NCBI GenBank assembly: GCA_963667725.2
Contig: CAXXHO010000003.1
Location: 640,001-704,000, forward strand
DNA from: Treponemataceae bacterium
Lineage (GTDB): Bacteria; Spirochaetota; Spirochaetia; Treponematales; Rectinemataceae
Direction of reading: 5' to 3'
DNA: 64,000 bases
Shown here: positions 11,103 through 47,372 of the stretch, in pieces
How the letters are laid out: every line of letters starts with the position of its first letter
How positions within the stretch are numbered: the first letter of the stretch is position 1
Translations under genes and position numbers: made by a program
Notes under the pieces: model-generated
Databases searched by the model: none
Told to the model about the DNA's origin: nothing
The model's input: only the letters and a program-made list of their open reading frames with translations

Positions 11103-11113
11103 CTCTTCCCTCC

Positions 11114-12789: not shown

Positions 12790-12813
12790 TGGATACCTCC
12801 ATGCGCCGGGCGG

Positions 12814-12888: not shown

Positions 12889-12926
12889 CAAAGAACCGCC
12901 GCTCTATCCAGGAAGCGCCCTTCGTT

Positions 12927-16615: not shown

Positions 16616-16627
16616 ACAATCATCCTC

Positions 16628-16678
16628 GGGGGCGGGCGCCGCGCGGATGCGGCTCGCTTCCGCGCGGCGCCCGCCCCC
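16628..16678. repeat. Perfect 20-bp GC inverted repeat upstream of ygfM
   Basis: GGGGGCGGGCGCCGCGCGGA-N11-TCCGCGCGGCGCCCGCCCCC. Confidence 0.85.
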
Positions 16679-16699
16679 AATGCCCTCCAATATATTCGG

Positions 16700-18058
16700 T
16701 TACAGAATGCCCGCGGACGTATAGAGCCGGCGGGCCGCTTTTTCGGCATTGACGCGGATCAGTTCCTCGTCGACGCCGCGGAGCTTCCTTGAGCGCACCA
16801 CGAAACGGCCATTCACGATGAGGTGATCGACGCCGTGGTTATAGCCCGAGAAGAGAAGCGCGGCGACAGGGTCCGACAGGGCGCCAACGTATTCGAGCTT
16901 CATGACGTCGAAGAGGGCGAGGTCGGCCAGGGCGCCCTCGCGGATGACCCCAGCCTCTTCGTAGCCGAGGAGGCTGGCGCCGCCCTTTGTGGCGATGTTC
17001 AGCACTTCCTGGGCCGTGATGCCAGCCGAGCCGTAGCGGATGCGCTGCAGCAGTAGGGCTTGGCGCGCCTCGCCCAGCATGTCGGAGGAGTCATTCGAGG
17101 CCGAGCCGTCGACGGCGAGGCCGACGGGTATGCCACGGTCTATCATTTCGCGAACCCGGCAGATGCCCGAGCCCAGCCTCATGTTCGAGGAGGGGCAGTG
17201 GGCGACGCCTGTTTTCGTTTTCGCGAGGAGGTCGAGTTCCTCGTCGTTGAAGAAGATGCCGTGGGCGAACCAGACATCGGGGCCGACGAAGCCGCAGTCC
17301 TCCATGAGCCTGAGGGGCCGCCTGCCGTACATCCGTATGCAGTAGGCTTCCTCGTCGCTCGTCTCGGCGAGATGGGTGTGGAGGCGAGCGCCGAACTTGC
17401 GTGCAAGTTCGGCGCTGCGGCGCATCAAGTCTTCGGATACGGAAAAGGGCGAGCAGGGGGCGAGGGCTACCTTCCGCATCGAATCGGGGGCAGGGTCGTG
17501 GAAGCGCTTTATCGTCGCTTCGCAATGGGCGAGGATCTCATCCTCGTCCTGGACCGTGGAATCGGGAGGCAGTCCGCCATCCTTCTTCGAACGGCTCATC
17601 GAGCCCCTTGTCGGCGCGAAACGCAGGCCTAGGTCCGCCGCCGCCTTGAACTGCAGCGCCGGGATGTCGTCGCCGAAACCTTCCGGGTAGAGGTAATGGT
17701 GGTCGGTGGTGAGGGTGCAGCCCGTCTTGGCAAGCTCGGCCATCGCGAGCATCGAGGACCAATACACGGCTTCGGGATCGAGATGCTTCCAGATTTCATA
17801 GAGATAGAGAAGCCAGTCGAAGAGCTTCGCGTTCTGCACGGCGGGCAGGTTGCGCGTCAGCGTCTGGTAGAAATGGTGATGCGTGTTGACGAGACCCGGA
17901 AGGACGACATGGCGCGACGCGTCTATAATATCGGCTCCCGCGGGAGCGACGATGTTCGTTCCTATTCGCGTTATGCGATTTTTATCGACGAGGATATCGA
18001 CGCCCGATAGTTCGGCGTCGGCAGCGAGCACCCTGAAGCAGTTCCGGAGGAGTATCAC
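16700..18058 (-). CDS. 8-oxoguanine deaminase-like amidohydrolase
   Basis: NTHHHFYQTLTR, LAPCSPFSVS (PCS motif), HLAE, HCPSSNMRLGSG (SSN motif), DGSASND; GTG start overlaps the upstream stop. Confidence 0.8.
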   Translation of the reverse strand: MILLRNCFRVLAADAELSGVDILVDKNRITRIGTNIVAPAGADIIDASRHVVLPGLVNTHHHFYQTLTRNLPAVQNAKLFDWLLYLYEIWKHLDPEAVYWSSMLAMAELAKTGCTLTTDHHYLYPEGFGDDIPALQFKAAADLGLRFAPTRGSMSRSKKDGGLPPDSTVQDEDEILAHCEATIKRFHDPAPDSMRKVALAPCSPFSVSEDLMRRSAELARKFGARLHTHLAETSDEEAYCIRMYGRRPLRLMEDCGFVGPDVWFAHGIFFNDEELDLLAKTKTGVAHCPSSNMRLGSGICRVREMIDRGIPVGLAVDGSASNDSSDMLGEARQALLLQRIRYGSAGITAQEVLNIATKGGASLLGYEEAGVIREGALADLALFDVMKLEYVGALSDPVAALLFSGYNHGVDHLIVNGRFVVRSRKLRGVDEELIRVNAEKAARRLYTSAGIL

Positions 18059-19512
18059 CGCATAACCTCCGCGTTGAACTCGTCGATGAGATCGTCCAAC
18101 GCTTCAACCTGGGCGTGGAGGCCGCCCCAGTAGTTGCGATGGTCATCCCACTGGGCCCTGAGCTCGGCCAGATCCTTGCCCTGCTGCTCGATCCAGGTGA
18201 AGTACTTGAGATTGTGGATACGGCGCTTGTCCACCTGCGTGAGTTCGAAGACATGGTCCACGGAAATTCCGGCGAGCCTGTCCTGGTCCTTGTCGGACTG
18301 GCGCTGGCCGTAGGGACCGCGCTCCGCGTTGAGCTCGTCGAGCCTGGACTGGTACATGGTCATGGAGTCGGTGAACATGGTGAAGACGACGTCGTGCTCG
18401 TCCATTTCGTAGTATTTCGCCATCTTGATCGCGCCGATGAGGTTGCCGACGCCCGAGATGCCGAGGAGGCCCAGCTGGGCCACGGCCTCGGGATCGGCTC
18501 CCGCGGCGACGAGGGCATCCCGGCCCGCCTTCTCGTTGAAGAGGCGGATGAAGCGGATGGGCAGCTCGTCGTCGACGCCGATGGCGGCGTCGGTGTCACG
18601 CATATTGTGGATCCAGGGGATGTGCTTGTCGCCGATGCCCTCGATGCGATGATCGCCGTATCCGTTTTCGAGGATTGTGGGACATTGGAGAGCTTCAGCC
18701 ACGGCGATCTTGATGTCGGGGAAATGGTCGCGTAGGTAGGAGCCAGATCCGAGGGTGCCGGCCGAGCCCGAGGAGAGGAGAGTCCCAGCTACCCGGTCTC
18801 CAGGCTTGCCCACCTTCGCGAAGACTTCGGCCATAGCCGGCCCCGTGACCTGGTAGTGCCAGAGATTGTTGGGCAGCTGGTCGAACTGGTTGAAGATGAC
18901 GGCGTCGGGGCGCGTAGCTTCCAGCTCGATGCACTTGTCGAAGATTTCCTTGACGTTGGATTCGCAGCCCGGGGTGGCGATCACTTCCTCGGCCATGGTC
19001 TTCAGCCATTCGAAGCGCTCGCGGCTCATGCCAGCGGGAAGGATGGCGATCGAGGGGCAGGAGAGTAGGCGGGAGATATAGGCGCCGCCCCTGCAGTAGT
19101 TGCCGGTCGAAGGCCAAACGGCTTTCTTGGTGGTCGGGTCGAATCGGCCGGTGACAAGTTCGGGCACGAGGCAGGCATAGGCCGCGCCGACCTTGTGCGC
19201 TCCCGTGGGGAACCATTTTCCGACGAGGCCGATGATGCGGGCCTTCGTGCCCGTGATGGCGCGAGGAATCTCGAGAAAATTGACGCCGCCGAAGCCGCCG
19301 CCCTTTTCGACGGGCTCGTTATGCCAGTTGACGCGGAAAAGGTTGCGCGGATGGACGTCCCAGAGACCGATGCCAGATAGCTCTTTCTTCACCGAGGCGG
19401 GAATCTTGGCCGGATCCCTCATCTGGGCGTAGGTGGGAAGGAGAATGCCTTTTTCCCTGCATCGCTGGATATTTTTCTTTCTTTGGATTTCGTTGACGTT
19501 AAGATCGATCAT
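18055..19512 (-). CDS. PLP-dependent fold-type II enzyme of unknown substrate (485 aa)
   Basis: FPTGAHKVG (PLP lysine), STGNY, NQF, SGSAGTLG phosphate loop, HRIEGIG; AAGGAG RBS. Confidence 0.8.
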   Translation of the reverse strand: MIDLNVNEIQRKKNIQRCREKGILLPTYAQMRDPAKIPASVKKELSGIGLWDVHPRNLFRVNWHNEPVEKGGGFGGVNFLEIPRAITGTKARIIGLVGKWFPTGAHKVGAAYACLVPELVTGRFDPTTKKAVWPSTGNYCRGGAYISRLLSCPSIAILPAGMSRERFEWLKTMAEEVIATPGCESNVKEIFDKCIELEATRPDAVIFNQFDQLPNNLWHYQVTGPAMAEVFAKVGKPGDRVAGTLLSSGSAGTLGSGSYLRDHFPDIKIAVAEALQCPTILENGYGDHRIEGIGDKHIPWIHNMRDTDAAIGVDDELPIRFIRLFNEKAGRDALVAAGADPEAVAQLGLLGISGVGNLIGAIKMAKYYEMDEHDVVFTMFTDSMTMYQSRLDELNAERGPYGQRQSDKDQDRLAGISVDHVFELTQVDKRRIHNLKYFTWIEQQGKDLAELRAQWDDHRNYWGGLHAQVEALDDLIDEFNAEVMR

Positions 19513-29646: not shown

Positions 29647-29683
29647 AAAAAAGCGGTCATCGGAAATCGATGACCGCTTTTTT
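29647..29683. terminator. Bidirectional rho-independent terminator
   Basis: AAAAAA-GCGGTCATCG-GAAAT-CGATGACCGC-TTTTTT between convergent genes. Confidence 0.88.
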
Positions 29684-29700: not shown

Positions 29701-30861
29701 TTACGAGAGCCGCGCGCCCACCGCTTTCGCGGCGCTTTTTATGTCCTTGAGACCCGATCCTGTGAGCATGACGACAACGGTCTCCTCGCGGGGGATCGTC
29801 GACAGGACTTTCAGGTAGGAGGCGAAGGCGCAGGCGCTCGAGGGTTCCGCGAAGAGGCCGGACATGGAGGAGAGCCGGCGCTGGGCGACGAGGATTTCCT
29901 CGTCGGTGACGGTTACGCCCTTGCCGCCGTACTTCCTCAATTTGGCGAGGACGAAGCCGCCGTTGCGCGGCACATCGACGGAGATCGAGTCGGCGAGGGT
30001 ATCGGAGGGGCGCTCATCGAAGCCGCCCGTCGCGAGGGCGCGCGCGATGGCGCTGGAGCCTTCGGCCTGGGCTGCCCAGAAGGTCGGCATTTTAGAGGTG
30101 AGGCCGAGCCTGAGGAGGTCTTCGAAGCCCTTGATGATACCGGCCAGGATGACGCCGTCGCCGGTGGGCACGAAGACGTGATCGGGAGCGGTTCCCAGGT
30201 CCCGGGCGATCTCGAAGCTGGCCGTCTTTTTGCCTTCGATGGTGAGGGGATTGTAGGCGGTGTTACGCGAGAGGACGCCGGTGGCCGCCGAATAGGCGAG
30301 GGATTCGTCGAAGGCCTGGTCGTAGGTGCCCTGGATCTCGCGAAGCTCGGCGCCGTACTGGAGGACCTGAACGCGCTTGGCCGCCGGCGCGGAGGCCGGC
30401 AGGAAGACGGTGATTTTGAGGCCGGCGGCCGCTCCCACGCAGGCCATGCTCGAGGCGGCGTTGCCGGTTGAAGCGAGGGCGATTTCCTTGAGCCCGAACT
30501 TGCGCGCGAAGGCCGCCACGAGCCAGCTCGCCCTGTCCTTATAAGAGCCCGAGGGGTTGCAGGTGTCGTCCTTGAGGTAAAGGTTGGGCGCGTCCAGGGC
30601 TTCGCGCAAGCGCTCAGGCTCCCATAGCGGCGTGTCCCCCACGGGCAGCGGCGGGAAAAATTCTTTCTCGATGGGGAGCGGAACGCTTCCGGCCTCCGCG
30701 ATCCTGAGCGCCTCGCCTTCGTCTTCCTCCCAGGCGCATTCGAGGACGCCTTCCAGGGGAATGCCCGGCTTGTTTTTCCTGCCGCATTCATCGCAGAGGT
30801 AGCGTCCGGGCTCGATCGGGTAGGTGGCGCCGCAGGAGGGGCAGCGGTAGAGCCATCTCAT
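29701..30861 (-). CDS. Threonine-synthase-like PLP fold-type II enzyme
   Basis: N-terminal CxxC..CxxC, GDTPL, NPSGSYKDR, ASTGNAASS, EGKKT, VPTGDG, LTGSGLK; ATGA overlap with ygeY. Confidence 0.85.
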   Translation of the reverse strand: MRWLYRCPSCGATYPIEPGRYLCDECGRKNKPGIPLEGVLECAWEEDEGEALRIAEAGSVPLPIEKEFFPPLPVGDTPLWEPERLREALDAPNLYLKDDTCNPSGSYKDRASWLVAAFARKFGLKEIALASTGNAASSMACVGAAAGLKITVFLPASAPAAKRVQVLQYGAELREIQGTYDQAFDESLAYSAATGVLSRNTAYNPLTIEGKKTASFEIARDLGTAPDHVFVPTGDGVILAGIIKGFEDLLRLGLTSKMPTFWAAQAEGSSAIARALATGGFDERPSDTLADSISVDVPRNGGFVLAKLRKYGGKGVTVTDEEILVAQRRLSSMSGLFAEPSSACAFASYLKVLSTIPREETVVVMLTGSGLKDIKSAAKAVGARLS

Positions 30862-32066
30862 GCGCGTTTCTCCAGCCTGCCGGGAAGGGCGGCGTAGAAG
30901 GCGGCGCAGATCTCGAGGTCGTCGATCCTGTTGATTTCGTTCGGCGCGTGGGCCTGGCTCTCGTCGCCGGGGCCGAAGCCTATGCAGGGGATCTGGTGAC
31001 GGCCACATATGGCGACGCAGTTCGTCGAAAAGGTCCATTTATCCACGACGGGAGGTTTACCGAAAAGGTCGCCGTAGGCTTCCACGCCCGAGCGGACGAG
31101 GGGATGATCGGCCTTGATTTTCCAGGTGGGGAAATAGAGTTCCTGTCTGTAGAGGGTTCCTGTGTATGCCGGCTGGGCGTATTCGGGCATTTTTACCGTG
31201 AAGTTGTTCACGCCAGCTTCCGTCAGGGCTTTTTCGACCTGGGCGATGGCGATCGCGTCGTTTTCGCCCCAGGTGAGGCGGCGGTCGCAGTAGAGCATAG
31301 CCTGGTCGGGTACGGCGCACTGGCTCGGTCCCTGTACCTTGATTTGCGATACCGTGATGGTGCCCTTGCCAAGGAATCCATCGTCGTCCGGTTTCAGCTC
31401 GGTGTTGAGCTTCTCGATGGCGAGGGCGGCGCGCGCCGCCTTGTAGGCAGCCGAATCGCCGCGCTCGGGCGCCGAGCCGTGGCAGGAGACGCCTTTGATG
31501 TCGATCTGGATTTCCATGCGTCCGCGGTGGCCGCGGTAGAGCCTGCAGGAGGTGGGTTCGGTGGAGACGGCGAAATCGGGGACGAATTTCTCTTCCTCGA
31601 TGAGGTATTTCCAGCAGAGCCCGTCGCAGTCTTCCTCGATGACGGTGAAGGCGAACCAGACGGTGAAGTCGCCGTCGTAGGCCAGTTCCTTCAGGATACG
31701 CGCCGCGGTGATCATGGAGGCGGCGCCTCCTAGCTGGTCGGAGGAGCCGCGTCCGTAGACGAGGCCGTCTTTGATAATTCCAGAGTGGGGCTGGGTTTTC
31801 CACTGGGCGGGGTCGCCGACGCCGACCGTGTCGATGTGGGCGTCGAAAACGAGCTTTTTTTTGCCTTTGCCGACGCGCCCGAGCAGAGAGCCGAGGCCGT
31901 CGATGTGGATATCTTCCATGCCCGCTTCGGCGCAGAGTTTCTTAAGCAGCAGGACGCGGTCTTTTTCAGTCGTGCTGAAGCCCGGCACCTTGATCATTTC
32001 GCTTAAGTTGCGGGCCGTGTAGTCCCTGTATTCCTTCGCTTTCGCGAGAATTGTCGCGCTGTCCAT
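30858..32066 (-). CDS. ygeY: YgeY-family M20 hydrolase
   Basis: DAHIDTVG, EEDCDGLCWKY, YRGHRGRMEI, CHGSAPERGD, DRRLTWGE, KWTFSTN, GFGPG...AHAPNE. Confidence 0.92.
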   Translation of the reverse strand: MDSATILAKAKEYRDYTARNLSEMIKVPGFSTTEKDRVLLLKKLCAEAGMEDIHIDGLGSLLGRVGKGKKKLVFDAHIDTVGVGDPAQWKTQPHSGIIKDGLVYGRGSSDQLGGAASMITAARILKELAYDGDFTVWFAFTVIEEDCDGLCWKYLIEEEKFVPDFAVSTEPTSCRLYRGHRGRMEIQIDIKGVSCHGSAPERGDSAAYKAARAALAIEKLNTELKPDDDGFLGKGTITVSQIKVQGPSQCAVPDQAMLYCDRRLTWGENDAIAIAQVEKALTEAGVNNFTVKMPEYAQPAYTGTLYRQELYFPTWKIKADHPLVRSGVEAYGDLFGKPPVVDKWTFSTNCVAICGRHQIPCIGFGPGDESQAHAPNEINRIDDLEICAAFYAALPGRLEKRA

Positions 32067-32068: not shown

Positions 32069-33415
32069 TCACCTTCCTTCCATATTGTTCCAGAGACGGC
32101 GAGCCTGGACGCGCGCCGCAGCCTGGATTTTTTCCATATCGAACAGGGGTTTCCTGTCCTGGATGCGAATTTTTCCCGCGACCGCGACGCTGCGCACGGA
32201 GCGAGAGCTCATGCCGAAGGCCATGTGGCCCGCGATGTTGGCCGGGTCGAGGGGGGTGGGCGGGTCGTAGTCCCAGAGGACGAGATCGGCCGGATTGCCG
32301 GGGGCGAGGACGCCGAAGCTGCCTTCGCCGGGGAAATAGCGCTCGAGGAGCCTGTTGCCGCGGTCGAGGCAGGCGAGGAAGTTGTCGGGCCACCAGGGGC
32401 CGGCCGATTCCCTGTGACGGAAGACGGCGAACTTGAATTCCTCGAGCATGTCGGCGCCCATGCCGTCGGTGCCGAGGACGACGTTCCCGTGCGTCGGCAG
32501 GAGGGCGTTGTAGCCCACCGCGTTGTTCATGTTGGATCGCGCGTTGTGGGCGAGGAAGACGTCCCGGGCGTTCATGATCTCAATTTCCGAGGGCGTGAGC
32601 CAGAGTCCGTGGCCGATGATGCCCTTGGGGGTGAGGGCCCCGACTTTCTCCAGCCTTTCGACGAGGTCGAGGCCGTGGCGATAGCGTGAATCGACGGCGT
32701 CGTACCTGTCCTCGGCGAGATGGATGTGGATGCCCCGGCCGGAGGTTTTCACCGCGTCGGCGAGGCCTTCAAGCGTCTCCTGGCCGACGGTGAAGCCGGC
32801 GTGGCCGCCTACGGCGGCCTCAACCTGGGGTCGCTGACCGCGCGCGCGCATCCCGTCCACTTCGCGCGCGAAGCGCAGGTTTTCGGACAGCCCCGCGTGC
32901 GCGCCGTCGGCGCCGTTCCGGTCTGTAGTCTCGTAGCAGAGTATGCCGCGCAGGCCCACTTCCTCATAAGCCTGCCTGATGACCGACAGGCTTCCGTCGA
33001 TGGCGTTGGGGCTCGCGTGGTGATCCACGAGGGAAGTGACACCCGCAGCCAGCGCGTCGGCGCAGCCCGCGAGGGCGCTCGCCTCGATGATGGGCAGGTC
33101 GATCGCCCTATCCAGCCTCCACCAGAGGTGCTCGAGGATCTGGCAGAAATCCTTGGAGGGCTGGATGGCCACCTCCATGCCCCTCGCGAGCGCGGAATAG
33201 AGATGGGTGTGGGCGCAGACGAGGCCCGGCGAGAGATAGCCGCCTGAGCCCGCGAGTTCTGCCCGCGGGTATTTCGCGCGCAGTCCGGTTCCGATCTCAG
33301 CTATCGTCCCGGCCTTCGCGCCTTCCTCCTCCGGTCCGTAGGCGACGAGGTCGCATTCTTCCGAAACGGCGGGAGGGTTGAAGGACAGGAGCTTTACGTT
33401 CTCGAAAAGGATCAT
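32069..33415 (-). CDS. ssnA: SsnA-family amidohydrolase
   Basis: HTHLYSALARG, ILEHLWWRLDRA, DHHASP, CYETTDR, SNMNNAVGY, LGTDG.GADMLEE, YDPPTPL. Confidence 0.92.
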   Translation of the reverse strand: MILFENVKLLSFNPPAVSEECDLVAYGPEEEGAKAGTIAEIGTGLRAKYPRAELAGSGGYLSPGLVCAHTHLYSALARGMEVAIQPSKDFCQILEHLWWRLDRAIDLPIIEASALAGCADALAAGVTSLVDHHASPNAIDGSLSVIRQAYEEVGLRGILCYETTDRNGADGAHAGLSENLRFAREVDGMRARGQRPQVEAAVGGHAGFTVGQETLEGLADAVKTSGRGIHIHLAEDRYDAVDSRYRHGLDLVERLEKVGALTPKGIIGHGLWLTPSEIEIMNARDVFLAHNARSNMNNAVGYNALLPTHGNVVLGTDGMGADMLEEFKFAVFRHRESAGPWWPDNFLACLDRGNRLLERYFPGEGSFGVLAPGNPADLVLWDYDPPTPLDPANIAGHMAFGMSSRSVRSVAVAGKIRIQDRKPLFDMEKIQAAARVQARRLWNNMEGR

Positions 33416-36400
33416 GGAGCTTCCTCCAGAAGATAGCGATGGGTTCGGTAGACTTCGCGCGCGAAGGCCACCATGGCCGAATCGGCCGGCGCGGAAACCG
33501 CTCCGTTCCAGGATGGGTAGTCGAGCTTATGCGGGGGAGCGCCGATCTCGGTTCTCAGGACGAGATTGGAAAGGCCGCCTTCGGAGACGAAGGCGAATCC
33601 GGCGTTCTTCGAGGCGGCGAGATCTTCCTCGTCGTCGAAGAGGGTGACTTTGCCGGAGAATGGTTCCCCCTCGAAGGGGCAGAAGAAGCCGCAGTTGCCG
33701 CATTCGTTGCAGAGACGGTCCAGATGGAGGATCTGGGCATCCTGGGCGAAGGGCAGGCCGGATTCGATGAACATGTTGGCGCGGTTGGGACAGACTTCCA
33801 CGCAGCGCAGGCATGCCGAGTCGCAGGCGAGGCAGCGTTCGGCCTCCCTCTCGGCGAATTTAGGATCGTCGAAATCGAGGGAAGGCAGAATTTCTCCCCG
33901 CTTCGCCAGCTTGGACCTATCCATGAGGGGCGGGCGGTAATCGGCCGTCGGCAGGACGAATCCTTCGGCGGCGAGAATGGCCCTGGCAGCCGCCCTTCCG
34001 TCGGCTTCAGCGGCGATGATGGAGGCCGGACCGCGCCTTGCGTCTCCGCCGACATAAAGGCCCTTTACCTCGGTTTCCATCGTGTCGGGATTGGCTATGG
34101 GAAGATGGTTTCTTCCAAGGCTCACTCCCAGCTGCTCGAGAAGCCGGGCATCGGGTTCTTCTCCGACCGCCGTTATGAGGAGATCGCAGGGGAGTTCGAA
34201 GGTTTCTTCCGAAGGAAGGGGAGAACGGCGCCCGGAGGCGTCCTTCTCGCCAAGGACCATGCGCCTCAGCACGAGGCTGCCAGGCTTCGCTTCCTCGGGC
34301 AGGGAAAGCTCCAGCATCGTATTCCGCTCGCCACCCAAGGCCTTGGACTCCTGGAGCGCGTTTTCCAGTTCTTCCAGGTCGGCGGGCATTTCCTTGCGAG
34401 TCCTTCTGTAGGAAAGGTGGACGGATTCCATCCCGAGAATACGCGTGGCGGCGCGCACCGCGTCGCAGGCCGTGTTGCCGCCGCCGGCCACGATTACATG
34501 GCGGATACCGGCGAAGGCTTCGGCTCCTTCGGCCCCGAAACGTTTAAGGAAGTCGAGGGCGTCCATGGTCTTGAGCCCCGACCCTTTAAGCTTTAATTGG
34601 CGCGCGGAATCGGCCCCCGTGCAGATGAAGAAGCTCGTGTAGCCTTCCGCCTTGAGCTCGCCGAGCGAGGCGATGCTCCGCCCGAATTCGAATCCGACCC
34701 CTATGGAGGCTATCCTGTCGATATCGCGGGCGATTTCTTCCCTGGCGATCCTGAAGCCGGGTATGACGTTGGCGGGGACGCCTCCGGGCGCCGGGCCCGA
34801 GTCGAACACTTTCACTTCGTGGCGCGCTGAAGCCAGGTAATAGGCGCAGGCGAGTCCGGCCGGCCCGGCGCCTATTACGGCGCTCTTCCCTCCGGGGACG
34901 CAGAGCGCTTCGGGCAGGGGAGCGGCGGGCAGATCGGCGGCTCTCGCGGCCTTCAGCTTCACGTCGCGTATCCGCACCGAGCCCTCGTAATCGAGCCTGG
35001 AACAATGTTCCTGGCAGACGTGGTCACAGAGCACGCCCGTTATGTGGGCGAGGGGATTGTCAGAGAGTATCGTGGCGAGAGCCTGTTCGCTCAGGCCTGA
35101 TCCTTGTGCCTTGATATAGGACGGCGCCTTCTGGTTTACGGGGCAGGCTTCTATGCAGGGAGCGGCGAAGCAGTCGTAGAGCGGGAGTTTTTTCGCTATG
35201 GAGACCTTGCCCACCTTCCATCCTTTTCGATACTCGGGTCTTCCGAGAGCGGCCTCGGCCAGGGCTTCCAGAGCCTCCGGGTTGGTCAACCTCGGCTCAA
35301 GCGGGATGGGCAGGGCGCCGACGGCTTCCCTAGCGATCTGCGCCAGGCGCAGGTATCCGCCCGGTTTCAGAATATCGGTGGCGACGGTCAGAGGTCCGAG
35401 TCCCGAGGTGATGAGGTCAGCCGCGTTGAGCGCCGAAACGCCGCCGCAGTAAGAGATTCGCGATCCCTCCTTGGGGAGGGATCGCGCTACCTTCGCCGCT
35501 AGCTTCATGGTGATGGGGAAAAGCGCCCGTCCCGACATATAGCGCTCGTGTCCGGGGAGATTCACGCTGTCGTTGGCGTTGGCGAGGGTGTTCGAGAGCT
35601 TGATGCCGAACCGGCGTCCTCTCGCCTGAGCCGTCTCGCTTAACTTCCGGACGAGGGCGAGGGCGGCGTCGAACTGCAGGTCGTGTTCAAAAGTTTCCCT
35701 TTTGATGACAATATCGTCCCAGCCCAGGCTGTCCAGAATCCGCCGCGCCTCATCGAAGCCGAGGAGGGTGGGATTGAGCTTTATGTAGGTGTCGAAGCCT
35801 TTTTCTTCAATTAGGTAGAGGCCGATGCGTTCGATTTCCTCAGGCGGGCAGCCGTGCATCGTGGAGAGCGTTACAGAGTGAAGGGGCCTTACTGGCATGT
35901 GCGCGGCGAGGGTTCTCGCCTTTTCGGCCAGCGCGTCGCCGAATGCCCGGGCGAAAGGCTCGCCCGCGATGAAGCGTTCGAGTTCCGCCATCGCCTTCGA
36001 CCAATATTCGGTGGTTTCCGGTCGCCTCATTCCCTCGATGAAGGCATCAACCTTCGCGCTTTTTATCCCCTCGAGCGTATAGCCGACCGACATGTTGAAG
36101 AAGAATTCGGTGGGTTTGCGGGACCAGAGGAAGGAGAAGAGGTTCACCGCTATCCATGCGTTGATATATTCCTTCCTGGCTTCCTCCAGGCTCAGCTCAG
36201 TCGACCATTCGACATTGTGCCCTTCGTCCAGCGCGTCGATGCATGGTTTGTCGATATCGAGGCTGTCGTTCTGCTGGACGGTCTTGAGTTCGAAGACGCG
36301 GGCTCCCGATAAATACGCGGCGAGGATGTTCGGGGCGATCTGCGTGTGGGGGCCGGCGGCAGGACCTACGGGGATGCTCGCCCTTCCCGACATGACCGTG

Positions 36401-36543
36401 AGCCCGGGACTATCCGCTTCCAGATCGAAGATTTCGCGGAAAACGCTTCCCGGGATTTCGTAGATAGAATCCTTGGCAGCGAATTCGCCCGCCGCCCGCG
36501 AAAGAAGCGCCGAAAGCGAGGTCGTTTTCATGATTTTGCTCAT
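33412..36543 (-). CDS. ygfK: YgfK-family Fe-S flavoprotein oxidoreductase
   Basis: GPAAGPHTQIA, ELKTVQ, STMHGCPPEEIE, KLNPTLLG, KLSNT, YMSGRALFP, GAGPAG, CVEVCPNRAN, CNECGNC. Confidence 0.93.
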   Translation of the reverse strand: MSKIMKTTSLSALLSRAAGEFAAKDSIYEIPGSVFREIFDLEADSPGLTVMSGRASIPVGPAAGPHTQIAPNILAAYLSGARVFELKTVQQNDSLDIDKPCIDALDEGHNVEWSTELSLEEARKEYINAWIAVNLFSFLWSRKPTEFFFNMSVGYTLEGIKSAKVDAFIEGMRRPETTEYWSKAMAELERFIAGEPFARAFGDALAEKARTLAAHMPVRPLHSVTLSTMHGCPPEEIERIGLYLIEEKGFDTYIKLNPTLLGFDEARRILDSLGWDDIVIKRETFEHDLQFDAALALVRKLSETAQARGRRFGIKLSNTLANANDSVNLPGHERYMSGRALFPITMKLAAKVARSLPKEGSRISYCGGVSALNAADLITSGLGPLTVATDILKPGGYLRLAQIAREAVGALPIPLEPRLTNPEALEALAEAALGRPEYRKGWKVGKVSIAKKLPLYDCFAAPCIEACPVNQKAPSYIKAQGSGLSEQALATILSDNPLAHITGVLCDHVCQEHCSRLDYEGSVRIRDVKLKAARAADLPAAPLPEALCVPGGKSAVIGAGPAGLACAYYLASARHEVKVFDSGPAPGGVPANVIPGFRIAREEIARDIDRIASIGVGFEFGRSIASLGELKAEGYTSFFICTGADSARQLKLKGSGLKTMDALDFLKRFGAEGAEAFAGIRHVIVAGGGNTACDAVRAATRILGMESVHLSYRRTRKEMPADLEELENALQESKALGGERNTMLELSLPEEAKPGSLVLRRMVLGEKDASGRRSPLPSEETFELPCDLLITAVGEEPDARLLEQLGVSLGRNHLPIANPDTMETEVKGLYVGGDARRGPASIIAAEADGRAAARAILAAEGFVLPTADYRPPLMDRSKLAKRGEILPSLDFDDPKFAEREAERCLACDSACLRCVEVCPNRANMFIESGLPFAQDAQILHLDRLCNECGNCGFFCPFEGEPFSGKVTLFDDEEDLAASKNAGFAFVSEGGLSNLVLRTEIGAPPHKLDYPSWNGAVSAPADSAMVAFAREVYRTHRYLLEEAP

Positions 36544-37910
36544 CGATAACCCCATTGGATGAATTTTCCGCTGCCCGGAAGGGCGAGTATTCCGCCCTCG
36601 CCGTAGACGCGGGATCCCCTGACGAAGGTTTCCTTGATCCTGCCGGCAAGCCGCATGCCCGCGAAAGGCGTTATGCGGCTCTTGCTGTACATCGAAGCCG
36701 GGTCGAGAAGGGTGCTGGCTTCGGGGTCTACGAGGACGAAGTCCGCGTCCTTGCCTTCGGCGAGCGAGCCCTTGCCGCCCGAAATTCCGTAGCGGGCCGC
36801 GGCCGCTCCCGAGGTCGCTTCGAGGAAGCGGGGGAGGCTGAGCCTTTTGGCGAAAAGGCCTTCGGAAAGGAGGTAGGGAAAGAAGGTGCCGGTGCCGGGA
36901 ATGCCGCCATAGGCGCTTAAAGGGTTACCCGTGAATTTTTCATAGTCGGGCGCGCCGGCATGGTCCGACGCCACAAAGGATATCGCGCCTTCCGCGAGCA
37001 GCTTCCAGAGCAGGGCTTTCTGGGAAGCTTCCTTGACAGGCGGGGCGGTCTTGAGCGCCGCCCCCAGGGCTTGGAAATCATCTTCGTCGAAGGCGAGGTA
37101 GTGGCCGCAGGTTTCGCAGCTCGCGCCCGAGGCGGCGACGAGCGCGGCCGCCTCGGCCGTGCCGACGTGGACGATATGGAGCCATCGCGGCCGCGCTCCC
37201 GCAAGCCGCAGCGCGGCGGAACAGGCCGCCGTTTCGGCCTCCATGGGGCGCGAGGCGTAGTAATCCTTCCAAGTGGGAGCCTTTCCGCCTCGAGCCGCGC
37301 CCAGGGCGGCCTCGGCCGCCGTTATCACCGCGGGATCCTCGGCGTGGAGGAGTAGCGGCCTGCCGGCTGCCGCGCAGCGATTATAAGCCCTGGCGAACTG
37401 CTCCGGCGTCACCGCCGTGAAACTTTCCATACCCGACACGAAATAGCACTTGAAGCCGACGACGCGCGAGGCGAGGGCGTCGATCGCCAAATCCATCGAC
37501 GCGTCGTCGAAGAGACCGTTGACGCCGCCGTAAAAGGCGAAATCGACCACGGCGCTTTTCGAGACGATGGCGAGCTTGTTCTTCAGCGCGGCGAGGCTCG
37601 TGACAGGCGGCAGGGAGGTACAGGGCATGTCGATCACCGTCGTCACGCCGCCGCGCGCCGCTTCGGAGCTGCCGTGGAGAAAGTCCTCCCTCTGCGTGAA
37701 TCCCGGTTCGTCGAAGTGGACGTGGGGATCTATGGCTCCGGGGAACATCATGAGCCCGGTGGCGTCGATCGTTTCCTCGTCGGCCGACGATACGTCGGCA
37801 AGGCTTCCCGCGGCGGCGACGCGGGCGATTTTTCCCTCGCGCACGAGAATGTCGACCCTGCAGAAATCCTTTTCGCCGGGCAGGGCGGCCAGGGCGTTCG
37901 CGATCAGCAT
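36540..37910 (-). CDS. Allantoinase-like cyclic amidohydrolase
   Basis: DPHVHFDEPG, GGVTTVIDMP, GFKCY (carboxylated Lys position), HAE, HIVH, ETCGHYL, SDH. Confidence 0.8.
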   Translation of the reverse strand: MLIANALAALPGEKDFCRVDILVREGKIARVAAAGSLADVSSADEETIDATGLMMFPGAIDPHVHFDEPGFTQREDFLHGSSEAARGGVTTVIDMPCTSLPPVTSLAALKNKLAIVSKSAVVDFAFYGGVNGLFDDASMDLAIDALASRVVGFKCYFVSGMESFTAVTPEQFARAYNRCAAAGRPLLLHAEDPAVITAAEAALGAARGGKAPTWKDYYASRPMEAETAACSAALRLAGARPRWLHIVHVGTAEAAALVAASGASCETCGHYLAFDEDDFQALGAALKTAPPVKEASQKALLWKLLAEGAISFVASDHAGAPDYEKFTGNPLSAYGGIPGTGTFFPYLLSEGLFAKRLSLPRFLEATSGAAAARYGISGGKGSLAEGKDADFVLVDPEASTLLDPASMYSKSRITPFAGMRLAGRIKETFVRGSRVYGEGGILALPGSGKFIQWGYR

Positions 37911-40168
37911 AAGCCCTCCCCGTCCAGGAAAGCCTCGATTTTTTCGGGGATGAAGGGAATATCGTAGGTCGTCTTTCCGTCCGGCTTGGCCGCCCGCAGC
38001 GCGTCCAGAACGGCGAAGTACGCCGCTATGCCGTACTGCAGGGGCGGTTCTCCCACAGCCTTCGAGTTGAAGGGAGCGAAGGGATTGTCCATGTCGGACA
38101 TCAATTCTATCTCCAACTTCTCGGGCAGGAAGGAATCGTTCGGGAGCTTGTAGGTCGAGAGCGTATCCGACAAGGGCCTGCCGTCCGCGCCGAAACGGAG
38201 ATCCTCGAGGAGGGTCCAGCCCAAACCCTGGGCGAAGGCGCCCTCAATCTGCCCGATGTCGACGCGCTCGTCCAGGCTGTTGCCCGAGTCGTGGACGATG
38301 GTCGCCGATTCTATCCTGCAGGTTGCGCGAACGAGATCGACCCGCGCCGTGAGACAGGCGGCGCCGTAAACATGATAGGCGAAGGGCGTCCCGCGCTCGG
38401 CCTTCATATCGTAAAAAAGCCCCGGCGTCGAATAGAAACCGTGAGCCGAGAGATCTATCCTCGCCTCGTTCGCGGCCGCGACGAGTTCGTTCCAGCCGAG
38501 CGCGCTCGATTTCCTTTCGACGAGGATCTTTCCGTCCTTTATCTCGATCGAAGAGGGATCGACGTCGAGCATGGACGCAGCTTTCGCCGTCAGCCTCGTC
38601 TTGATTTTCTCGCAGGCGATTTTAGCCGCCATGCCGTTGAGGTCGCTGCCCGTGCTCGCCGCCGTGGGGACGGTGTTGGCCACGGTCAGTGTCGTGGTGC
38701 GTTCCACGGAAACCCTTTCCTGGGGAATGCCCAGGGTTCTCGCGGCGATCAGCGCGATTTTCCGCGACACCTGCTGGCCCATCTCGATGGCGCCCGTCGA
38801 GACGAGGACTGAGCCGTCCGTGTACACATGCACGAGGGCTCCCGCCTGGTTCATCGGCAGCTTCGTGAAGGAAATACCGAAACAGAGGGGAAGAATGGCT
38901 GCGCCTCTCTTTTCCAGGCTGTTCGAGGTGTTGAAGGCCTCGATGTCGACGCGAAGCTCCTTCCAGGAGACTTTTTCGAGAAGCCTGTCGAAGGACTCCC
39001 CGGCGCGTACGCGCTCGAGGGGCATGCCGAAATAGGTGGAATCCCCTTCGCGGTAGAGATTCCTGCGCTGGAGTTCGACCCTGTCTATTCCCATGGAGCG
39101 AGCGAGAGCGTCCAGGGCGGCTTCTATGACGAAGAAGCCCTGAGGAGCCCCGAAACCGCGGAAGGCGGTGAAAGAGGGCAGGTTCGTGCGGCACATGTTG
39201 CCCGTCACCCTCACGTTGGGAATTTTATAGGCGCCCGTCGCGTGGAGGAGGGTTCTGGAGAGAATGGCGGGAGAAAGGTCGCAGGAGCAGCCGGAGTTCT
39301 GGTAGTAGTCGGCCTCGAAAGCCAGAAGCCTTCCGTCGGCGTCGGCGCCGATCCGGAAATCGCTCGAGTAGGGATGCCTTTTGCCTGTGGCCTGCATATC
39401 CACGCGCCGGTCGAGGTAGAGCTTGACGGGTTTTCTGCTCACCCAGGCTCCCAGCGCCGCGAGGGAGCCCCATATGGCGGCCTGGTCTTCCTTGCCGCCG
39501 AAGCCTCCGCCCAGGCGGCGAGCCTCCACTTCCACCATGTTCATGGCAAGGCCCAGGGACTGCGCCACGGCGCGCTGGACGCCGGTCGGACCCTGCGTGC
39601 TCGAAATGATAAAGACCTTTCTGTCATCGCGGATCTCCGCGTAAGCACCCTGCGTTTCAAGGTAGACATGCTCCTGGCCGCCCGAATCCACTCGCCCCGA
39701 GATTACATGGACGCAGCTCGCGAAAGCGGATTCGGGCTCTCCGCACTTGATCGTCCGCGAGGGCAGTATGAAATCGGCGGCGGCCGCCGCTTCCCTCGGA
39801 TCGAACAGGGCCGGCAAGTTCTCGCCGCTGACCCGGACGGCGGCGGCCGCTCTCCTCGCGAGCGAGCGCGTCTTCGCGAGCACGAGCGCTATAGGCTGCC
39901 CCCAGTATTCCCATTCTTCGGCGGGAAGGAGGGGCTCATCCGGCTTGTTGAAGCCTATCTGATTCTGGCCCGGAACATCCCTGGCCGTGATCACCCTGAC
40001 CGACGGGTCGAGGGCGAGGGCCGCCGAGGCATCGATGGAGAGTATTCGGCCGTGCGCGCTCTCGGAAAGCTTCGCCGCGGCCTGAAGGCAGTCCTTGGGC
40101 TCGGGCAGGTCGTCGATATATTTTGTGGCGCCCCTCAAATTCAGGGCGGATTCGGCTATGGTTTTCAT
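37904..40168 (-). CDS. xdhB: Xanthine dehydrogenase molybdopterin subunit
   Basis: QEHVYLET, RLGGGFGGKE, AFRGFGAPQG, FGISFT, EMGQ, TAASTGSDLNG, KAVGEPP. Confidence 0.9.
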   Translation of the reverse strand: MKTIAESALNLRGATKYIDDLPEPKDCLQAAAKLSESAHGRILSIDASAALALDPSVRVITARDVPGQNQIGFNKPDEPLLPAEEWEYWGQPIALVLAKTRSLARRAAAAVRVSGENLPALFDPREAAAAADFILPSRTIKCGEPESAFASCVHVISGRVDSGGQEHVYLETQGAYAEIRDDRKVFIISSTQGPTGVQRAVAQSLGLAMNMVEVEARRLGGGFGGKEDQAAIWGSLAALGAWVSRKPVKLYLDRRVDMQATGKRHPYSSDFRIGADADGRLLAFEADYYQNSGCSCDLSPAILSRTLLHATGAYKIPNVRVTGNMCRTNLPSFTAFRGFGAPQGFFVIEAALDALARSMGIDRVELQRRNLYREGDSTYFGMPLERVRAGESFDRLLEKVSWKELRVDIEAFNTSNSLEKRGAAILPLCFGISFTKLPMNQAGALVHVYTDGSVLVSTGAIEMGQQVSRKIALIAARTLGIPQERVSVERTTTLTVANTVPTAASTGSDLNGMAAKIACEKIKTRLTAKAASMLDVDPSSIEIKDGKILVERKSSALGWNELVAAANEARIDLSAHGFYSTPGLFYDMKAERGTPFAYHVYGAACLTARVDLVRATCRIESATIVHDSGNSLDERVDIGQIEGAFAQGLGWTLLEDLRFGADGRPLSDTLSTYKLPNDSFLPEKLEIELMSDMDNPFAPFNSKAVGEPPLQYGIAAYFAVLDALRAAKPDGKTTYDIPFIPEKIEAFLDGEGLC

Positions 40169-41763
40169 GGGAACAGCTCCTTCGCGATGCCGTCGGCGCC
40201 GAAGAGGCGGATGAAATGGGCCAGCATGAGCCTGCCCGTCATCCGCCTCCGGTAGGAAGCCGAGCCGCGAACGTCGCCGATGGGCGAGATTTCGGCTTCG
40301 GCGGCCGAGCCGACCTCCCTGGCGAGTCTGGCCAGAGCCTTCGCGTCATTCCTGTCGATCGCCGCTCCTTCCAGCGCCGCCGAAGCCTTCCTCAGCAGCG
40401 TCGGAACGGCGGCGACGCCGCCGGCGCTTATCCTGACTCCGCGCGCGAAGCCCTCCTCGACGCGGAAAGAGATGGCCGTATTGACCGCCGCGATATCGAG
40501 TCTTTCCCTTTTCGCGATCTTCTCGAAGGAAAACAGAAGCCTTGGTTTTGTTCCTGGAACGCCCGATTGGCCGCCTGATTCATCGTGGCTTATCAGCCCG
40601 TCCGGGATCAGAATAGCACGTATGATCTCGTTTTTCCGGAGTGCCGTCGTCTTATAGCCAGTGAAAAAATCCTCGATGGGAATTAACCGCGATCCGGCTT
40701 CAGCCCCCGCGGTCGCGCCGGTGTACCCGCCCGATGGAGCTGCGTACCCGCCGATTTCCAGCCTCGCCCCCAGAGCCATCAGCATCGAGGTGATGTCCCC
40801 CACGGGCGAAGCGTTGGCGATATTGCCCCCTACGGTGGCGATATTCCTGATCAGCGTGCTAGCGAACTGCCCTTCATAGGCATCAATGCCAGGGATGGCT
40901 TCCCGCACCGGCATCGAGGCGAAAAAATCGCGCAGGGTGACGGCGGCGCCTATCCTCAGCCATGGAGAACCGTCCAAATTTGTTCGGGCTATTTTCCTGA
41001 AATCATCGATCGAGCGGAGGCGGAGAGGCCTGAAATCGCCGGCCGGATAGGGATTTTTGACATAGTAGTCGGTTCCGCCGCCCAAGGCGATGAAGTCGGT
41101 CGCCCCCTGCGAGTCGGCTGCCGCGGACAGGCCTGCCGCCTCCGCCATAAACACGAGGACGGAACGTGGCAGCACGCTTTTCTCCACGAGCACCTTCAGC
41201 CGCTCCATGGGGTCCCGCGGCAGTTCTCCGAACTCCCTCGCGAGGCGCTCGGCAGCTCTCCTTATGGCGCCATACCCGGTGCATCGGCACAGGTTGCCAT
41301 CCGCGGCGATCATGGCTCCCGCCAAATCCGGCTTGCCCGGACCCGCAAGCCAGGCGCTCAGGCTGACAATGAAACCAGGGCTGCAGAATCCGCACTGGCT
41401 CGCGTTCTCCTCCAGAAAGGCCCGCATCACGGGAGTCAGTCCCCCCGGCGCCGAAGCGCTCAAACCTTCGATCGTTACTAGGTGTTTCCCGGCGAGATCG
41501 CCCAGCGACAGAAGGCAGGAGGGTACAGCCAGGTATCGCGGCGCGCCTCCGTTGCAGTCGCCTCCGCCCGCGGCGCCTCCGCAGCAGCCGTCAACAACGA
41601 ATTCCCCCACCAGCACGGCGCAGGCGCCGCAGTCGCCCTCCCTGCAGCCTTCCTTCGTTCCCGTCAGGCCCATCTCCCCTCGTATGAAATCGAGAGCGGG
41701 CGTGCCGGGTCCCGTCTTCGGTTCGACCCATGTGTCATTCACGAATATCCTGAACGTTTCCAT
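40165..41763 (-). CDS. xdhA: Xanthine dehydrogenase small subunit (2x[2Fe-2S] + FAD)
   Basis: GTKEGCREGDCGAC, QCGFCSPG, GNLCRCTGY, GGGTD, IRNIATVGGNIANASPVGD, DVRGSASYR. Confidence 0.9.
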   Translation of the reverse strand: METFRIFVNDTWVEPKTGPGTPALDFIRGEMGLTGTKEGCREGDCGACAVLVGEFVVDGCCGGAAGGGDCNGGAPRYLAVPSCLLSLGDLAGKHLVTIEGLSASAPGGLTPVMRAFLEENASQCGFCSPGFIVSLSAWLAGPGKPDLAGAMIAADGNLCRCTGYGAIRRAAERLAREFGELPRDPMERLKVLVEKSVLPRSVLVFMAEAAGLSAAADSQGATDFIALGGGTDYYVKNPYPAGDFRPLRLRSIDDFRKIARTNLDGSPWLRIGAAVTLRDFFASMPVREAIPGIDAYEGQFASTLIRNIATVGGNIANASPVGDITSMLMALGARLEIGGYAAPSGGYTGATAGAEAGSRLIPIEDFFTGYKTTALRKNEIIRAILIPDGLISHDESGGQSGVPGTKPRLLFSFEKIAKRERLDIAAVNTAISFRVEEGFARGVRISAGGVAAVPTLLRKASAALEGAAIDRNDAKALARLAREVGSAAEAEISPIGDVRGSASYRRRMTGRLMLAHFIRLFGADGIAKELFP

Positions 41764-41788: not shown

Positions 41789-43513
41789 TTATTCTCGCTC
41801 ATTCACATAGAGATCCACCGGCGCGAAGCGGTCCACGTCGATAAGCCCCACATCAGTGATCTTGAGACTAGAGATCACGGGCAGGGCCATGAAAGAAAGG
41901 GTCATCAGCGGCGAATGGTTCGTCAAGCCTTCGCGGATGAATATTCCCTCGAAAGCGCGAAGCCTCTCGATGACGAAGTCGGCGTTTTGATCGCTCATGA
42001 GGCCGGCTACAGGAAGCGGGAGATCGAGGATTATGTCGTTGCCCACGGCATAGACGAGACCGCCCTTTATCTTGTTGAGGTGCCGGGCCGCCTTGAAAAT
42101 GGAGGTGTTGTCCACGCCAGCGATGATCATGTTGTGCGAGTCGTGGCTGATCGTGCCGCCGATGGCGCCGCGCTTCAGGCCGAGCCCCTTTATGAAACCC
42201 TTGCCGATCCGCCCCGAGCCGATGTGACGCTCGATGACGAATATCTTGATGAGGTCCCGATCCGGATCGGAGACGCATTCGCCGTTCCTTACCGTCGGCT
42301 TTTCCACGAGATGGCCGGTGATGATGGAATCCTGCCTGGCCTCGATGACGCGGATCTTCTTGCCTTGGTCGGGGATGACGAAATCCCCCGCCGTAAGCCA
42401 CTTGATGTTTACCGAGTCCCGGAGCGAAACCTGACGCGGCGGGAAATTTTCCAGGAGAACGCCGTTTTCGGCGATGAGGCGGCCGCGCTTGAACACCATC
42501 TCAGCCCTGAAATCCTCGAATGAGGAAAAAGCGACGAAATCGGCCTTGCATCCCGGCGCGATCACGCCGATGTCTTTCATCCCGAACCATTGGGCGGGGT
42601 TGGCCGCCGCTATCCTGAAGGCGTCCACGGGCGCCACGCCCCCCGCGAGGAGAAGCCTGAGCGCGTGGTCCATGTGACCTTCGTCGCGCAGGTCGTTGGA
42701 ATGCCTGTCGTCCGAGCAGATCATGAATCTGGATATCGAGGAAGGCGTTATGGCAGGGATGAGATGACCCAGGTCGCGGGCCGTCGAGCCCTCCCTGAGC
42801 ATGATGTACATGCCCTTGGACAGCTTTTCCGCCGCTTCCGCGGGCGTTGTGCACTCGTGATCCGAGCCGATTCCGGCCAGTATGTACGCCGAGAGAGCCG
42901 CCCCCGAAAGCCCTGGTGCGTGTCCGTCCACGGGTTTTCGAGCGTTCGTGAAGAGGGCGATCTTGTCCATGAGACGCTGCTCGCGCGCCAGGACGCCCGG
43001 GTAATTCATCACTTCGCCCAGGCCGAGAACCCGCTTGTCCTGGAGAAAAGGGTACATGTCGGAAGCGTAGAGCGCGGCGCCGGCCGTATCGAACTCGGTG
43101 GCCGGCACGCAGGACGGGACCATGAAGAAAATATCGAGGGGAAGGTTGTCCGAGGCCGCCAGCATGAAGCGCATGCCGTCGTAGCCCATGACGTTGACGA
43201 TTTCGTGAGGATCGGCCACCACCGTCGTGGTGCCGTGGGGCAGGACGACGCGGGAATATTCTGCCGGGGTGAGCAGCGACGATTCGATATGGACATGGGC
43301 ATCCACGAGACCCGGGGCGAGGAATTTTCCGCCCAGATCGATCTCGGCCCTGGCTTCGAGACCGTCGTTCACGCCGACGATCCTGCCGCTGCGAACCGAT
43401 ACCGTGGCCTTCGCGATGAAGGTCCCGCCGAGCACGTCGACGATCGTGCAGTTTCTGATGTTGAGGTCGCACGGAACCTTTCCGGCCGCGGTATCGATTA
43501 GGTCTTTGTTCAT
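41789..43513 (-). CDS. ade: Adenine deaminase
   Basis: DAHVHIESS, DPHEI.NV, GEVMN, DGHAP, DHEC, REGS, SDDRH, SHDSHN. Confidence 0.94.
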   Translation of the reverse strand: MNKDLIDTAAGKVPCDLNIRNCTIVDVLGGTFIAKATVSVRSGRIVGVNDGLEARAEIDLGGKFLAPGLVDAHVHIESSLLTPAEYSRVVLPHGTTTVVADPHEIVNVMGYDGMRFMLAASDNLPLDIFFMVPSCVPATEFDTAGAALYASDMYPFLQDKRVLGLGEVMNYPGVLAREQRLMDKIALFTNARKPVDGHAPGLSGAALSAYILAGIGSDHECTTPAEAAEKLSKGMYIMLREGSTARDLGHLIPAITPSSISRFMICSDDRHSNDLRDEGHMDHALRLLLAGGVAPVDAFRIAAANPAQWFGMKDIGVIAPGCKADFVAFSSFEDFRAEMVFKRGRLIAENGVLLENFPPRQVSLRDSVNIKWLTAGDFVIPDQGKKIRVIEARQDSIITGHLVEKPTVRNGECVSDPDRDLIKIFVIERHIGSGRIGKGFIKGLGLKRGAIGGTISHDSHNMIIAGVDNTSIFKAARHLNKIKGGLVYAVGNDIILDLPLPVAGLMSDQNADFVIERLRAFEGIFIREGLTNHSPLMTLSFMALPVISSLKITDVGLIDVDRFAPVDLYVNERE

Positions 43514-43544
43514 GCCCGCTCCTCCTCAGAATGCTTAGCTCTCA

Positions 43545-43573
43545 ATGATAGCCGGAAAGCCCTCGGCGCGCAA
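43545..43573 (-). promoter_or_regulatory. Sigma70-like promoter of the ade-xdhAB-ygfK-ssnA-ygeY operon
   Basis: Minus strand TTGCGC-N17-TATCAT upstream of the GAGGAGGAG RBS. Confidence 0.55.
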
Positions 43574-43599
43574 TGTTTTTCTATGGAAGGCGGGTCATG

Positions 43600-43626
43600 A
43601 AAAAGGGCGTTCCCTCGGGAACGCCC
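43600..43626 (-). terminator. Rho-independent terminator after the ABC permeases
   Basis: Minus strand GGGCGTTCCC-GA-GGGAACGCCC-TTTTT. Confidence 0.8.
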
Positions 43627-43650
43627 AGTCGTCGCGTCGCCGGAATTCCC

Positions 43651-47260: not shown

Positions 47261-47321
47261 CTGAACTTGCCTTGATTTCCGGATTCTTGAAGGGATTTTT
47301 ATTTTAGATGCTTAAGATTAC

Positions 47322-47357
47322 AAAAAAAGCCGCCCGGGTCCAGGACCCAGGCAGCTC
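47322..47357 (-). terminator. Terminator/attenuator hairpin after the BMP gene
   Basis: Minus strand AGCTGCCTGGGTC-CTG-GACCCGGGCGGCT followed by a T-run. Confidence 0.75.
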
Positions 47358-47372
47358 TTTTCAGATCGACGA

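Follow-up and report, generated by a model that had tools for sequence, protein, structure and literature searches.

The reductive urate pathway was solved in 2025, with the diaminopropionate ammonia-lyase DpaL/YgeX as its sole exit to central metabolism. The stretch of 64,000 nucleotides from a Treponemataceae bacterium that was analyzed here (the window) carries two operons for purine breakdown, and it stems from a genome (97% complete) without a DpaL, the best TIGR01747 score being 18.7 bits against a cut-off of 274. Which enzyme, then, takes over 2,3-diaminopropionate (DAP)? An earlier note, made from the sequence, had pointed to a threonine synthase (ThrC)-like PLP enzyme encoded behind ygeY, termed THRL in the following, as a candidate replacement for DpaL that would perform a β-elimination on DAP or albizziin. 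THRL itself yields no match to TIGR01747.

The THRL gene (29701..30861, minus strand) encodes 386 aa from an ATG start; a 445-aa open reading frame was rejected as its start, as it represents an upstream extension within ygeY. The start of THRL inside the ygeY stop, described before, was seen again as an ATGA overlap with GGAGA 7 nt upstream (30858..30873, minus strand; junction GCGC-ATGA-GATGG), an arrangement that suggests translational coupling of the two genes. THRL is also the last gene before a terminator, as had been claimed. An inverted repeat of 16 bp, perfect and flanked by A/T tails, was detected by repeat search and folding (29647..29683, no strand assigned); it is located 18 nt beyond the THRL stop between convergent genes, and its hairpin folds with -27.6 kcal/mol (z -6.1; none of 200 shuffles was equally stable). 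A scan for consensus terminators returned zero candidates, this hairpin included; it is likely a bidirectional intrinsic terminator that closes the operon. The order of the operon is BMP-ABC-ade-xdhA-xdhB-allB-like-ygfK-ssnA-ygeY with THRL last, all on the minus strand. Its head consists of a BMP-type ABC transporter and adenine deaminase (41789..48461; TIGR01178 573 bits over a cut-off of 472, ABC families below cut-off), followed by xdhA-xdhB-like xanthine dehydrogenase subunits (37904..41763, both under the equivalog cut-offs) and an allantoinase-like cyclic amidohydrolase that occupies the hyuA position (36540..37910; TIGR03178 336, under the cut-off of 358). The position of this amidohydrolase gene between xdhB and ygfK is kept in relatives, and no TIGR02033 (dihydropyrimidinase) match over cut-off was found anywhere in the source genome. 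The flavin/Fe-S reductase gene ygfK (33412..36555; TIGR03315 1007 over 835), the amidohydrolase gene ssnA (32069..33415; TIGR03314 471 over 455.5) and ygeY, encoding the M20 ureido hydrolase (30858..32066; TIGR03526 487 bits, cut-off 321.5), complete the series.

About 10 kb from THRL, a second purine operon on the minus strand starts with the gene for a CysK-fold PLP enzyme of 485 aa, here named cysKL (18055..19512). Downstream of it are 8-oxoguanine deaminase, a ygfM-like FAD subunit and xdhD (12927..18058; PRK08203 604 over 532, TIGR03313 1183 over 1102), a TRAP transporter (dctP, small subunit, dctM) and the knotted carbamoyltransferase ygeW (8594..12891); carbamate kinase is encoded elsewhere in the source genome. 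Between the two operons (19712-29632) lies a block that is, judged by translation, of the Fe-S/metal-handling type (NifU-like, radical SAM-like, P-loop ferredoxin, peroxiredoxin, Mrp-like, DUF134/NifB-NifX-like). In relatives, THRL and cysKL are often adjacent or separated by an insert shorter than this block. A transglutaminase-like protein (7101-8567) directly follows ygeW and is also found beside the cluster in loci L009 and L020.

One explanation for such a gene is an ordinary threonine synthase that came to lie in a purine operon by chance. The best sequence and fold matches of THRL are indeed threonine synthases: it shares 31-36% identity with short bacterial ThrC (PDB 1UIM/1V7C, 2ZSJ, 6CGQ, 2D1F), together with the PLP lysine, the STGN loop and the equivalent of K116 (K162), and its predicted structure (pLDDT 92.9) has ThrC as top match in both Foldseek and VIA, with Z 42.5 and an rmsd of 1.9 Å over 318 residues against 1v7c. 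The fold-type II motifs reported before are present (PF00291 238.8 bits; K108 in SGSYKDRA, the STGN loop and the TG-GLKD end), as is the N-terminal Cys4 segment (C7, C10, C23, C26). However, THRL stays under the ThrC cut-offs (TIGR00260 153.4, cut-off 167.1; PRK08197 200, cut-off 303), even though TIGR00260 separates THRL from ThrC poorly, because two of four other family members scored do pass it (L038 with 230, L067 with 187). In the alignment with Thermus thermophilus ThrC, T88, R160, N188 and T239 are replaced by A135, T207, D235 and D291, and a new arginine, R199, appears; T88, R160 and N188 (numbering taken from the 1UIM alignment) are the residues that we take to be ligands of the substrate phosphate, and the literature search found no paper on ThrC Arg160. 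Further differences from ThrC are GDGVI in place of GNAGN and ADSI in place of ATAI. A residue census of 211 distinct sequences from the fetched loci, 189 of which score at least 358 bits on a THRL profile and 22 at most 308, revealed that the exchange is a property of the family: A135 is found in 189/189 members, R199, D235 and D291 each in 188/189, and K108 within the S-F/Y-K-D-R motif in all 189, with an arginine at position 207 in a single one, whereas the 13 short ThrC among the 22 non-family sequences retain the T, R and N ligands. The Cys4 segment sets THRL apart from the short ThrC structures and is kept in 185-187 of the 189 members; it was rejected as a family marker and is not diagnostic, because 8 of the 22 other ThrC-like paralogs carry it as well.

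Phylogeny against ThrC and DpaL leads to the same separation. A quickly built tree of 80 rows, with long deep branches, places 34 of 35 THRL rows in one clade (98% SH-aLRT), apart from the 13 ThrC rows, which fall on one side of a 100% branch and for three of which the hom-thrC-thrB operon context was checked, and far from DpaL. The outlier, L211 (G731:C15:260662-261855; 358 bits), branches outside the clade and lacks purine context; its neighbors are amino-acid catabolic and transport genes. L210 (G495:C60:40506-41681) belongs to the clade and lies without purine context and without cysKL. The source genome, in turn, encodes ThrA, ThrH and two further proteins that exceed the TIGR00260 cut-off, among them a 535-aa long-type ThrC. 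The genome thus has a ThrC besides THRL; the earlier note had named the opposite case, THRL as the only ThrC, among the conditions that would speak against its proposal. As that note had also stated, hom and thrB are absent from the window; the sole homoserine dehydrogenase of the genome is located at C3:476k, and thrB gave no match over cut-off. With the family almost confined to purine-pathway genomes, a chance insertion of a threonine synthase is highly improbable, and the earlier view that THRL is not ThrC is upheld. Judged from the predicted structure, which matches ThrC best, THRL is built on the ThrC scaffold, its pocket being recast. DpaL was absent among the 50 matches listed in the VIA search, a result that leaves room for structural likeness, and the ESM Atlas offered only generic names.

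If THRL is not a threonine synthase, its distribution should be informative about the missing DpaL. Among 401 genomes of the source's own phylum, 48 contain YgeY, and these divide into 26 with DpaL only (23 of one family), 15 with THRL only, five with both, dpaL then being on a different contig, and two with neither. In the phylum of genome G401, 77 of 103 YgeY-positive genomes (YgeY score >500 bits) were used, of which 58 have THRL only, 13 both, five DpaL only and one neither; THRL is here commoner than DpaL (71 vs 18 genomes). THRL is thus present in 15/17 and 58/59 of the YgeY-positive, DpaL-negative genomes of the own and the G401 phylum, respectively, and THRL or DpaL in 46/48 and 76/77 of the YgeY genomes. 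In the G401 phylum, 79/103 YgeY-positive genomes carry THRL vs 2/298 YgeY-negative ones, the latter represented by L210 and L211. As related genomes are not independent, these co-occurrence counts describe patterns and are not tests. Of the anticipated mutual exclusion of THRL and ygeX, a strong anti-correlation was seen, but the strict form was rejected, given the 13/77 and 5/48 genomes with both and the four genomes that have THRL, cysKL and dpaL in one operon (L212-L215). The neighborhood agrees with a role in this pathway: ygeY is directly upstream of THRL in 24/31 genome loci, and purine genes occur in 56 of 76 multi-gene metagenome loci (80 fetched, four single-gene loci dropped), with neighbors named by BLAST against a reference set. 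No dpaL was detected in these 31 genome and 76 metagenome loci, many contigs of which are short. In four genomes with a ygeY-less THRL locus, YgeY is encoded elsewhere in all four and cysKL in three. Genome G495 has neither YgeY nor cysKL.

The second protein that follows THRL through these genomes is cysKL, which was detected in 69/71 THRL genomes of the G401 phylum and 17/20 of the own phylum, leaving THRL without a detected partner in 2/71 and 3/20; conversely, cysKL occurs without THRL in 1/70 and 2/19 genomes, the latter two DpaL-positive. The five DpaL-only genomes among the 77 have neither. The metagenome loci show cysKL as the THRL neighbor in 35/76 and ygeY in 16/76. The partner has a CysK fold with the PLP lysine at K107, but its sequence is HRIEGIGD at the place of QGIGAG or QGLGAG in the CysK rows shown. 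Among PDB entries, this segment is matched best by Fn1055, a cysteine (hydroxyl) lyase (PDB 5B53, 5B55), in which the motif HRIEGI-x-D is shared and D295 of cysKL, kept in 98/98 sequences, is aligned with D232, the residue at which 5b53 and 5b55 differ as D/N; the title of 5b55 describes D232N with aminoacrylate bound. D232 presumably activates water. Fn1055 converts cysteine and water to L-serine (PMC9865163, in the part available). Despite these likenesses, cysKL is only about 23% identical to Fn1055, has long N- and C-terminal additions and would use DAP rather than cysteine. It comes in two subtypes, one of about 485 aa as in the window and one of about 453 aa with 36% identity (L038:7491-8849 and related loci); HRIEGIGD is conserved in either, and either is paired with THRL. 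The proposal that THRL replaces DpaL therefore has to be modified: THRL fills the DpaL gap across genomes, but not as a lone enzyme, and it is together with cysKL that it looks like the stand-in for DpaL/YgeX in many anaerobes. That this pair acts at the DAP step where DpaL/YgeX is absent can be put forward with good confidence.

How the two enzymes would divide the work is more tentative. We infer the substrate, both reactions and their order from sequence, pocket changes, phylogeny, co-occurrence and gene order. By the priority rules, R corresponds to D in these compounds. The intermediates of the 2,8-dioxopurine (reductive urate) pathway are (R) according to the available text of one study (10.1101/2025.04.24.650524), and the YgeY product should therefore be D-DAP, which the pathway would supply to THRL. 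The diamine would be held in a ThrC pocket turned from anion-binding to acidic by D235 and D291, where THRL would most likely invert its α-carbon by means of a pair of bases, K108 and T132. In analogy to the action of Fn1055 on cysteine, the partner cysKL would then exchange the β-amine of L-DAP for water and release L-serine and ammonia, and serine could proceed to pyruvate via SdaAB or to glycine and one-carbon units via SHMT. CysK-fold enzymes act on L-substrates, and a serine-forming cysKL thus needs L-DAP; an upstream racemase would explain the pairing of both enzymes, the acidic pocket and the coexistence with DpaL as a separate branch. The serine racemase residue S84 corresponds, we assume, to T132, a threonine in 189/189 members, which would be the hydroxyl base on the re face, across from the PLP lysine. 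A Ser84Thr serine racemase still racemises, and threonine can act as second base (PMC6424897, in the part available). As the same threonine is found in true ThrC, it permits racemisation without indicating it. Fold-II racemases of serine and aspartate are also precedents for two-base racemisation (PMC6424897, same part), with serine racemase 2zpu reaching Z 36.2 against the THRL model. The assignment of racemisation to THRL and of serine formation to cysKL is held with somewhat less than even confidence. Against it speak the invariant R199, for which an amine would be a poorer fit than an anion or the carbonyl of a ureido group, and the genomes in which THRL and cysKL occur unpaired.

As the main rival reading, THRL alone could be a (D-)DAP ammonia-lyase that forms pyruvate and two ammonia as a non-orthologous YgeX, leaving either L-DAP or a side branch to serine to cysKL. 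Both are fold type II PLP enzymes in the same slot beside ygeY, with a presumed common substrate, and both are members of the ygeY-ygeW-ssnA-ygfK cluster; the R-N-T-A-Y loop of THRL aligns with Q-D-T-A-W of DpaL, the near-complete coverage of YgeY genomes by THRL or DpaL would follow naturally, and a direct route to pyruvate would suit a source genome that lacks SdaA. E. coli YgeX accepts both DAP isomers, as stated in the available part of 10.1101/2025.05.19.654654. On the other hand, THRL aligns with DpaL (PDB 4D9G, 5YGR) over just 134 residues with 25% identity, and the catalytic residues of DpaL are K77 and D120, the latter within ATDGNH (PMC4000059, in the part available), whereas THRL lacks both D120 and D189, the aligned residues being T132 and N200. 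A lyase would be odd as a redundant enzyme in the four operons that also contain dpaL, and its near-obligate cysKL partner would be left unexplained. RidA clears 2-aminoacrylate, and it is encoded in 5/16 dpaL loci but in none of 124 THRL-only loci. The lyase reading is possible but rather doubtful: the replacement proposed earlier is not supported as stated, and a β-elimination to pyruvate may still occur.

The serine branch of the preferred racemase and hydroxyl-lyase reading can be compared with gene context. In the G401 phylum, glyA or sdaBA is found in 14/49 THRL-only loci vs 0/11 dpaL loci (Fisher p 0.053, with kin counted as independent; L211 was not counted as THRL in the locus comparison of glyA, sda and RidA). 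Here, glyA adjoins THRL in seven loci and sdaB adjoins cysKL in four, sdaBA is located within THRL clusters in five, and L235 displays the order THRL-glyA-cysKL-sdaB-sdaA. The context, including the RidA contrast described above, points to a serine-forming route at least as strongly as to β-elimination to pyruvate. Against this stand the restriction of the link to the G401 phylum, with glyA/sda in 0/75 THRL loci outside it, and the absence of an SdaA match in 24 of the 80 THRL genomes examined (out of 91), the source genome among them. Moreover, purine fermenters possess a classical glycine-serine-pyruvate route, which glyA and sdaBA near THRL could serve instead. None of the eight PALP matches in the source genome reads as IlvA/TdcB; with neither SdaA nor IlvA/TdcB, serine could leave only via SHMT or two 430-aa SDH_alpha-domain proteins without SdaA match (G000:C5:1241745-1242449 and C5:1018427-1019122). 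These proteins, possibly of the cysteine desulfidase type, as we assume, are candidates for serine or cysteine breakdown.

The order of reactions could also be different, with cysKL making serine and THRL dehydrating it to pyruvate, a dehydratase role that would fill the SdaA gap in the 24 of 80 genomes, or with THRL turning D-DAP directly into serine by elimination and subsequent addition of water. Addition of a nucleophile to the β-carbon is typical of ThrC scaffolds, as ThrC itself adds water, and cysteate synthase is a ThrC-derived enzyme and a precedent for β-replacement on this scaffold (PMC9457059, in the part available); CapA2 9k3c matches the THRL model with Z 40.3. THRL shares 17-19% identity with cysteate synthase and the fold-II racemases and gives no sign of phosphoserine or sulfite chemistry. 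A dehydratase role for THRL would be redundant with sdaBA inside THRL clusters in the five loci mentioned, cysKL would be a poor first acceptor of D-DAP given the L-specificity of CysK-fold enzymes, and serine formation by THRL itself would call for a different role of the Asp that cysKL shares with Fn1055. Such a reordering is unlikely.

A further candidate substrate is albizziin (3-ureido-alanine), which one of the two orders published for the pathway includes as an intermediate (10.1101/2025.05.19.654654, in the part available). THRL would eliminate urea from it or racemise it, with an Arg/Asn/Thr/Asp pocket that binds the ureido group in place of the phosphate, and the invariant R199 together with D235 may well suit a urea group. 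The persistence of THRL in genomes without YgeY could be read in this direction: a sample of 301 genomes of the own phylum contains 25 with THRL, of which 13 gave no match to YgeY; DpaL is missing from all 13, and 11 of them keep THRL among purine genes. The notion that THRL is tied to YgeY was rejected on these 13 genomes; its link is to the pathway's end product, not to YgeY. However, in 7 of 14 YgeY-less loci fetched, the YgeW-like carbamoyltransferase is accompanied by a second one that is ATCase-like (L309, L311, L314, L315, L316:4305-5288, L318 and L319:6457-7443, from family f20 in the own phylum, with TIGR00670 scores of 248-250 bits that exceed the cut-off), so that both ureido groups would still be removed before the PLP step, and outside the YgeY-less genomes YgeY and YgeW-like genes are both retained. 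Since two ureido-removing enzymes persist in the YgeY-less clusters, DAP is favored over albizziin as substrate of THRL, and the albizziin part of the earlier proposal has become very unlikely. In these clusters phosphorolysis may account for the removal of both ureido groups, and the ATP yield would then be doubled. Carbamoyltransferases also vary where YgeY is present: in the G401 phylum, a divergent type (30-37% identical to the YgeW of the window) follows ygeY in most THRL clusters (among many others L099, L101, L205, L212 and L230), and most dpaL-only clusters have a type with 63-68% identity.

Taken as a whole, it is hypothesized, with a likelihood put a little short of even, that many anaerobes end the reductive urate pathway with a ThrC-derived DAP racemase and a CysK-derived DAP hydroxyl-lyase, directing carbon to L-serine, glycine and one-carbon units without free 2-aminoacrylate. 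The pathway is known, and this ending is new relative to the literature searched, in which no description of the THRL family or of such an ending was found; subscription papers were mostly outside this search, and supplements may show the genes unlabelled. Likewise, no DAP racemase or epimerase is described there beyond unrelated chemistry. The word threonine occurs zero times in the available text of 10.1101/2025.04.24.650524, 10.1101/2025.05.19.654654 and PMC12507026, and serine zero times in two of the three. Published surveys would treat the family in opposite ways: scoring YgeX by PF00291, as in the available part of 10.1101/2025.05.19.654654, would count THRL as YgeX, whereas a cut-off of 50% identity to YgeX, as in that of 10.1101/2025.04.24.650524, would miss it. 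If the hypothesis is true, two new enzyme activities with a different end product operate in a large share of the anaerobes that degrade urate and purines, widespread annotations as threonine synthase and cysteine synthase need correcting, and R199/D235/D291 and HRIEGIGD can serve as sequence markers for the variant.

Besides THRL, the source genome encodes two further ThrC-like paralogs (G000:C3:1691939-1692814 and G000:C5:954262-955173). The first is devoid of the phosphate ligands and carries the Cys4 segment, and relatives of this type have a cyclic amidohydrolase as neighbor in L295, and a racemase together with methylaspartate ammonia-lyase in L300. ThrC-like paralog matches with one internal TGA were encountered in G596, G736, G486, G560 and G345; in G596 and G736 the match probably reads through from the upstream gene, since the ThrC open reading frame is intact there.
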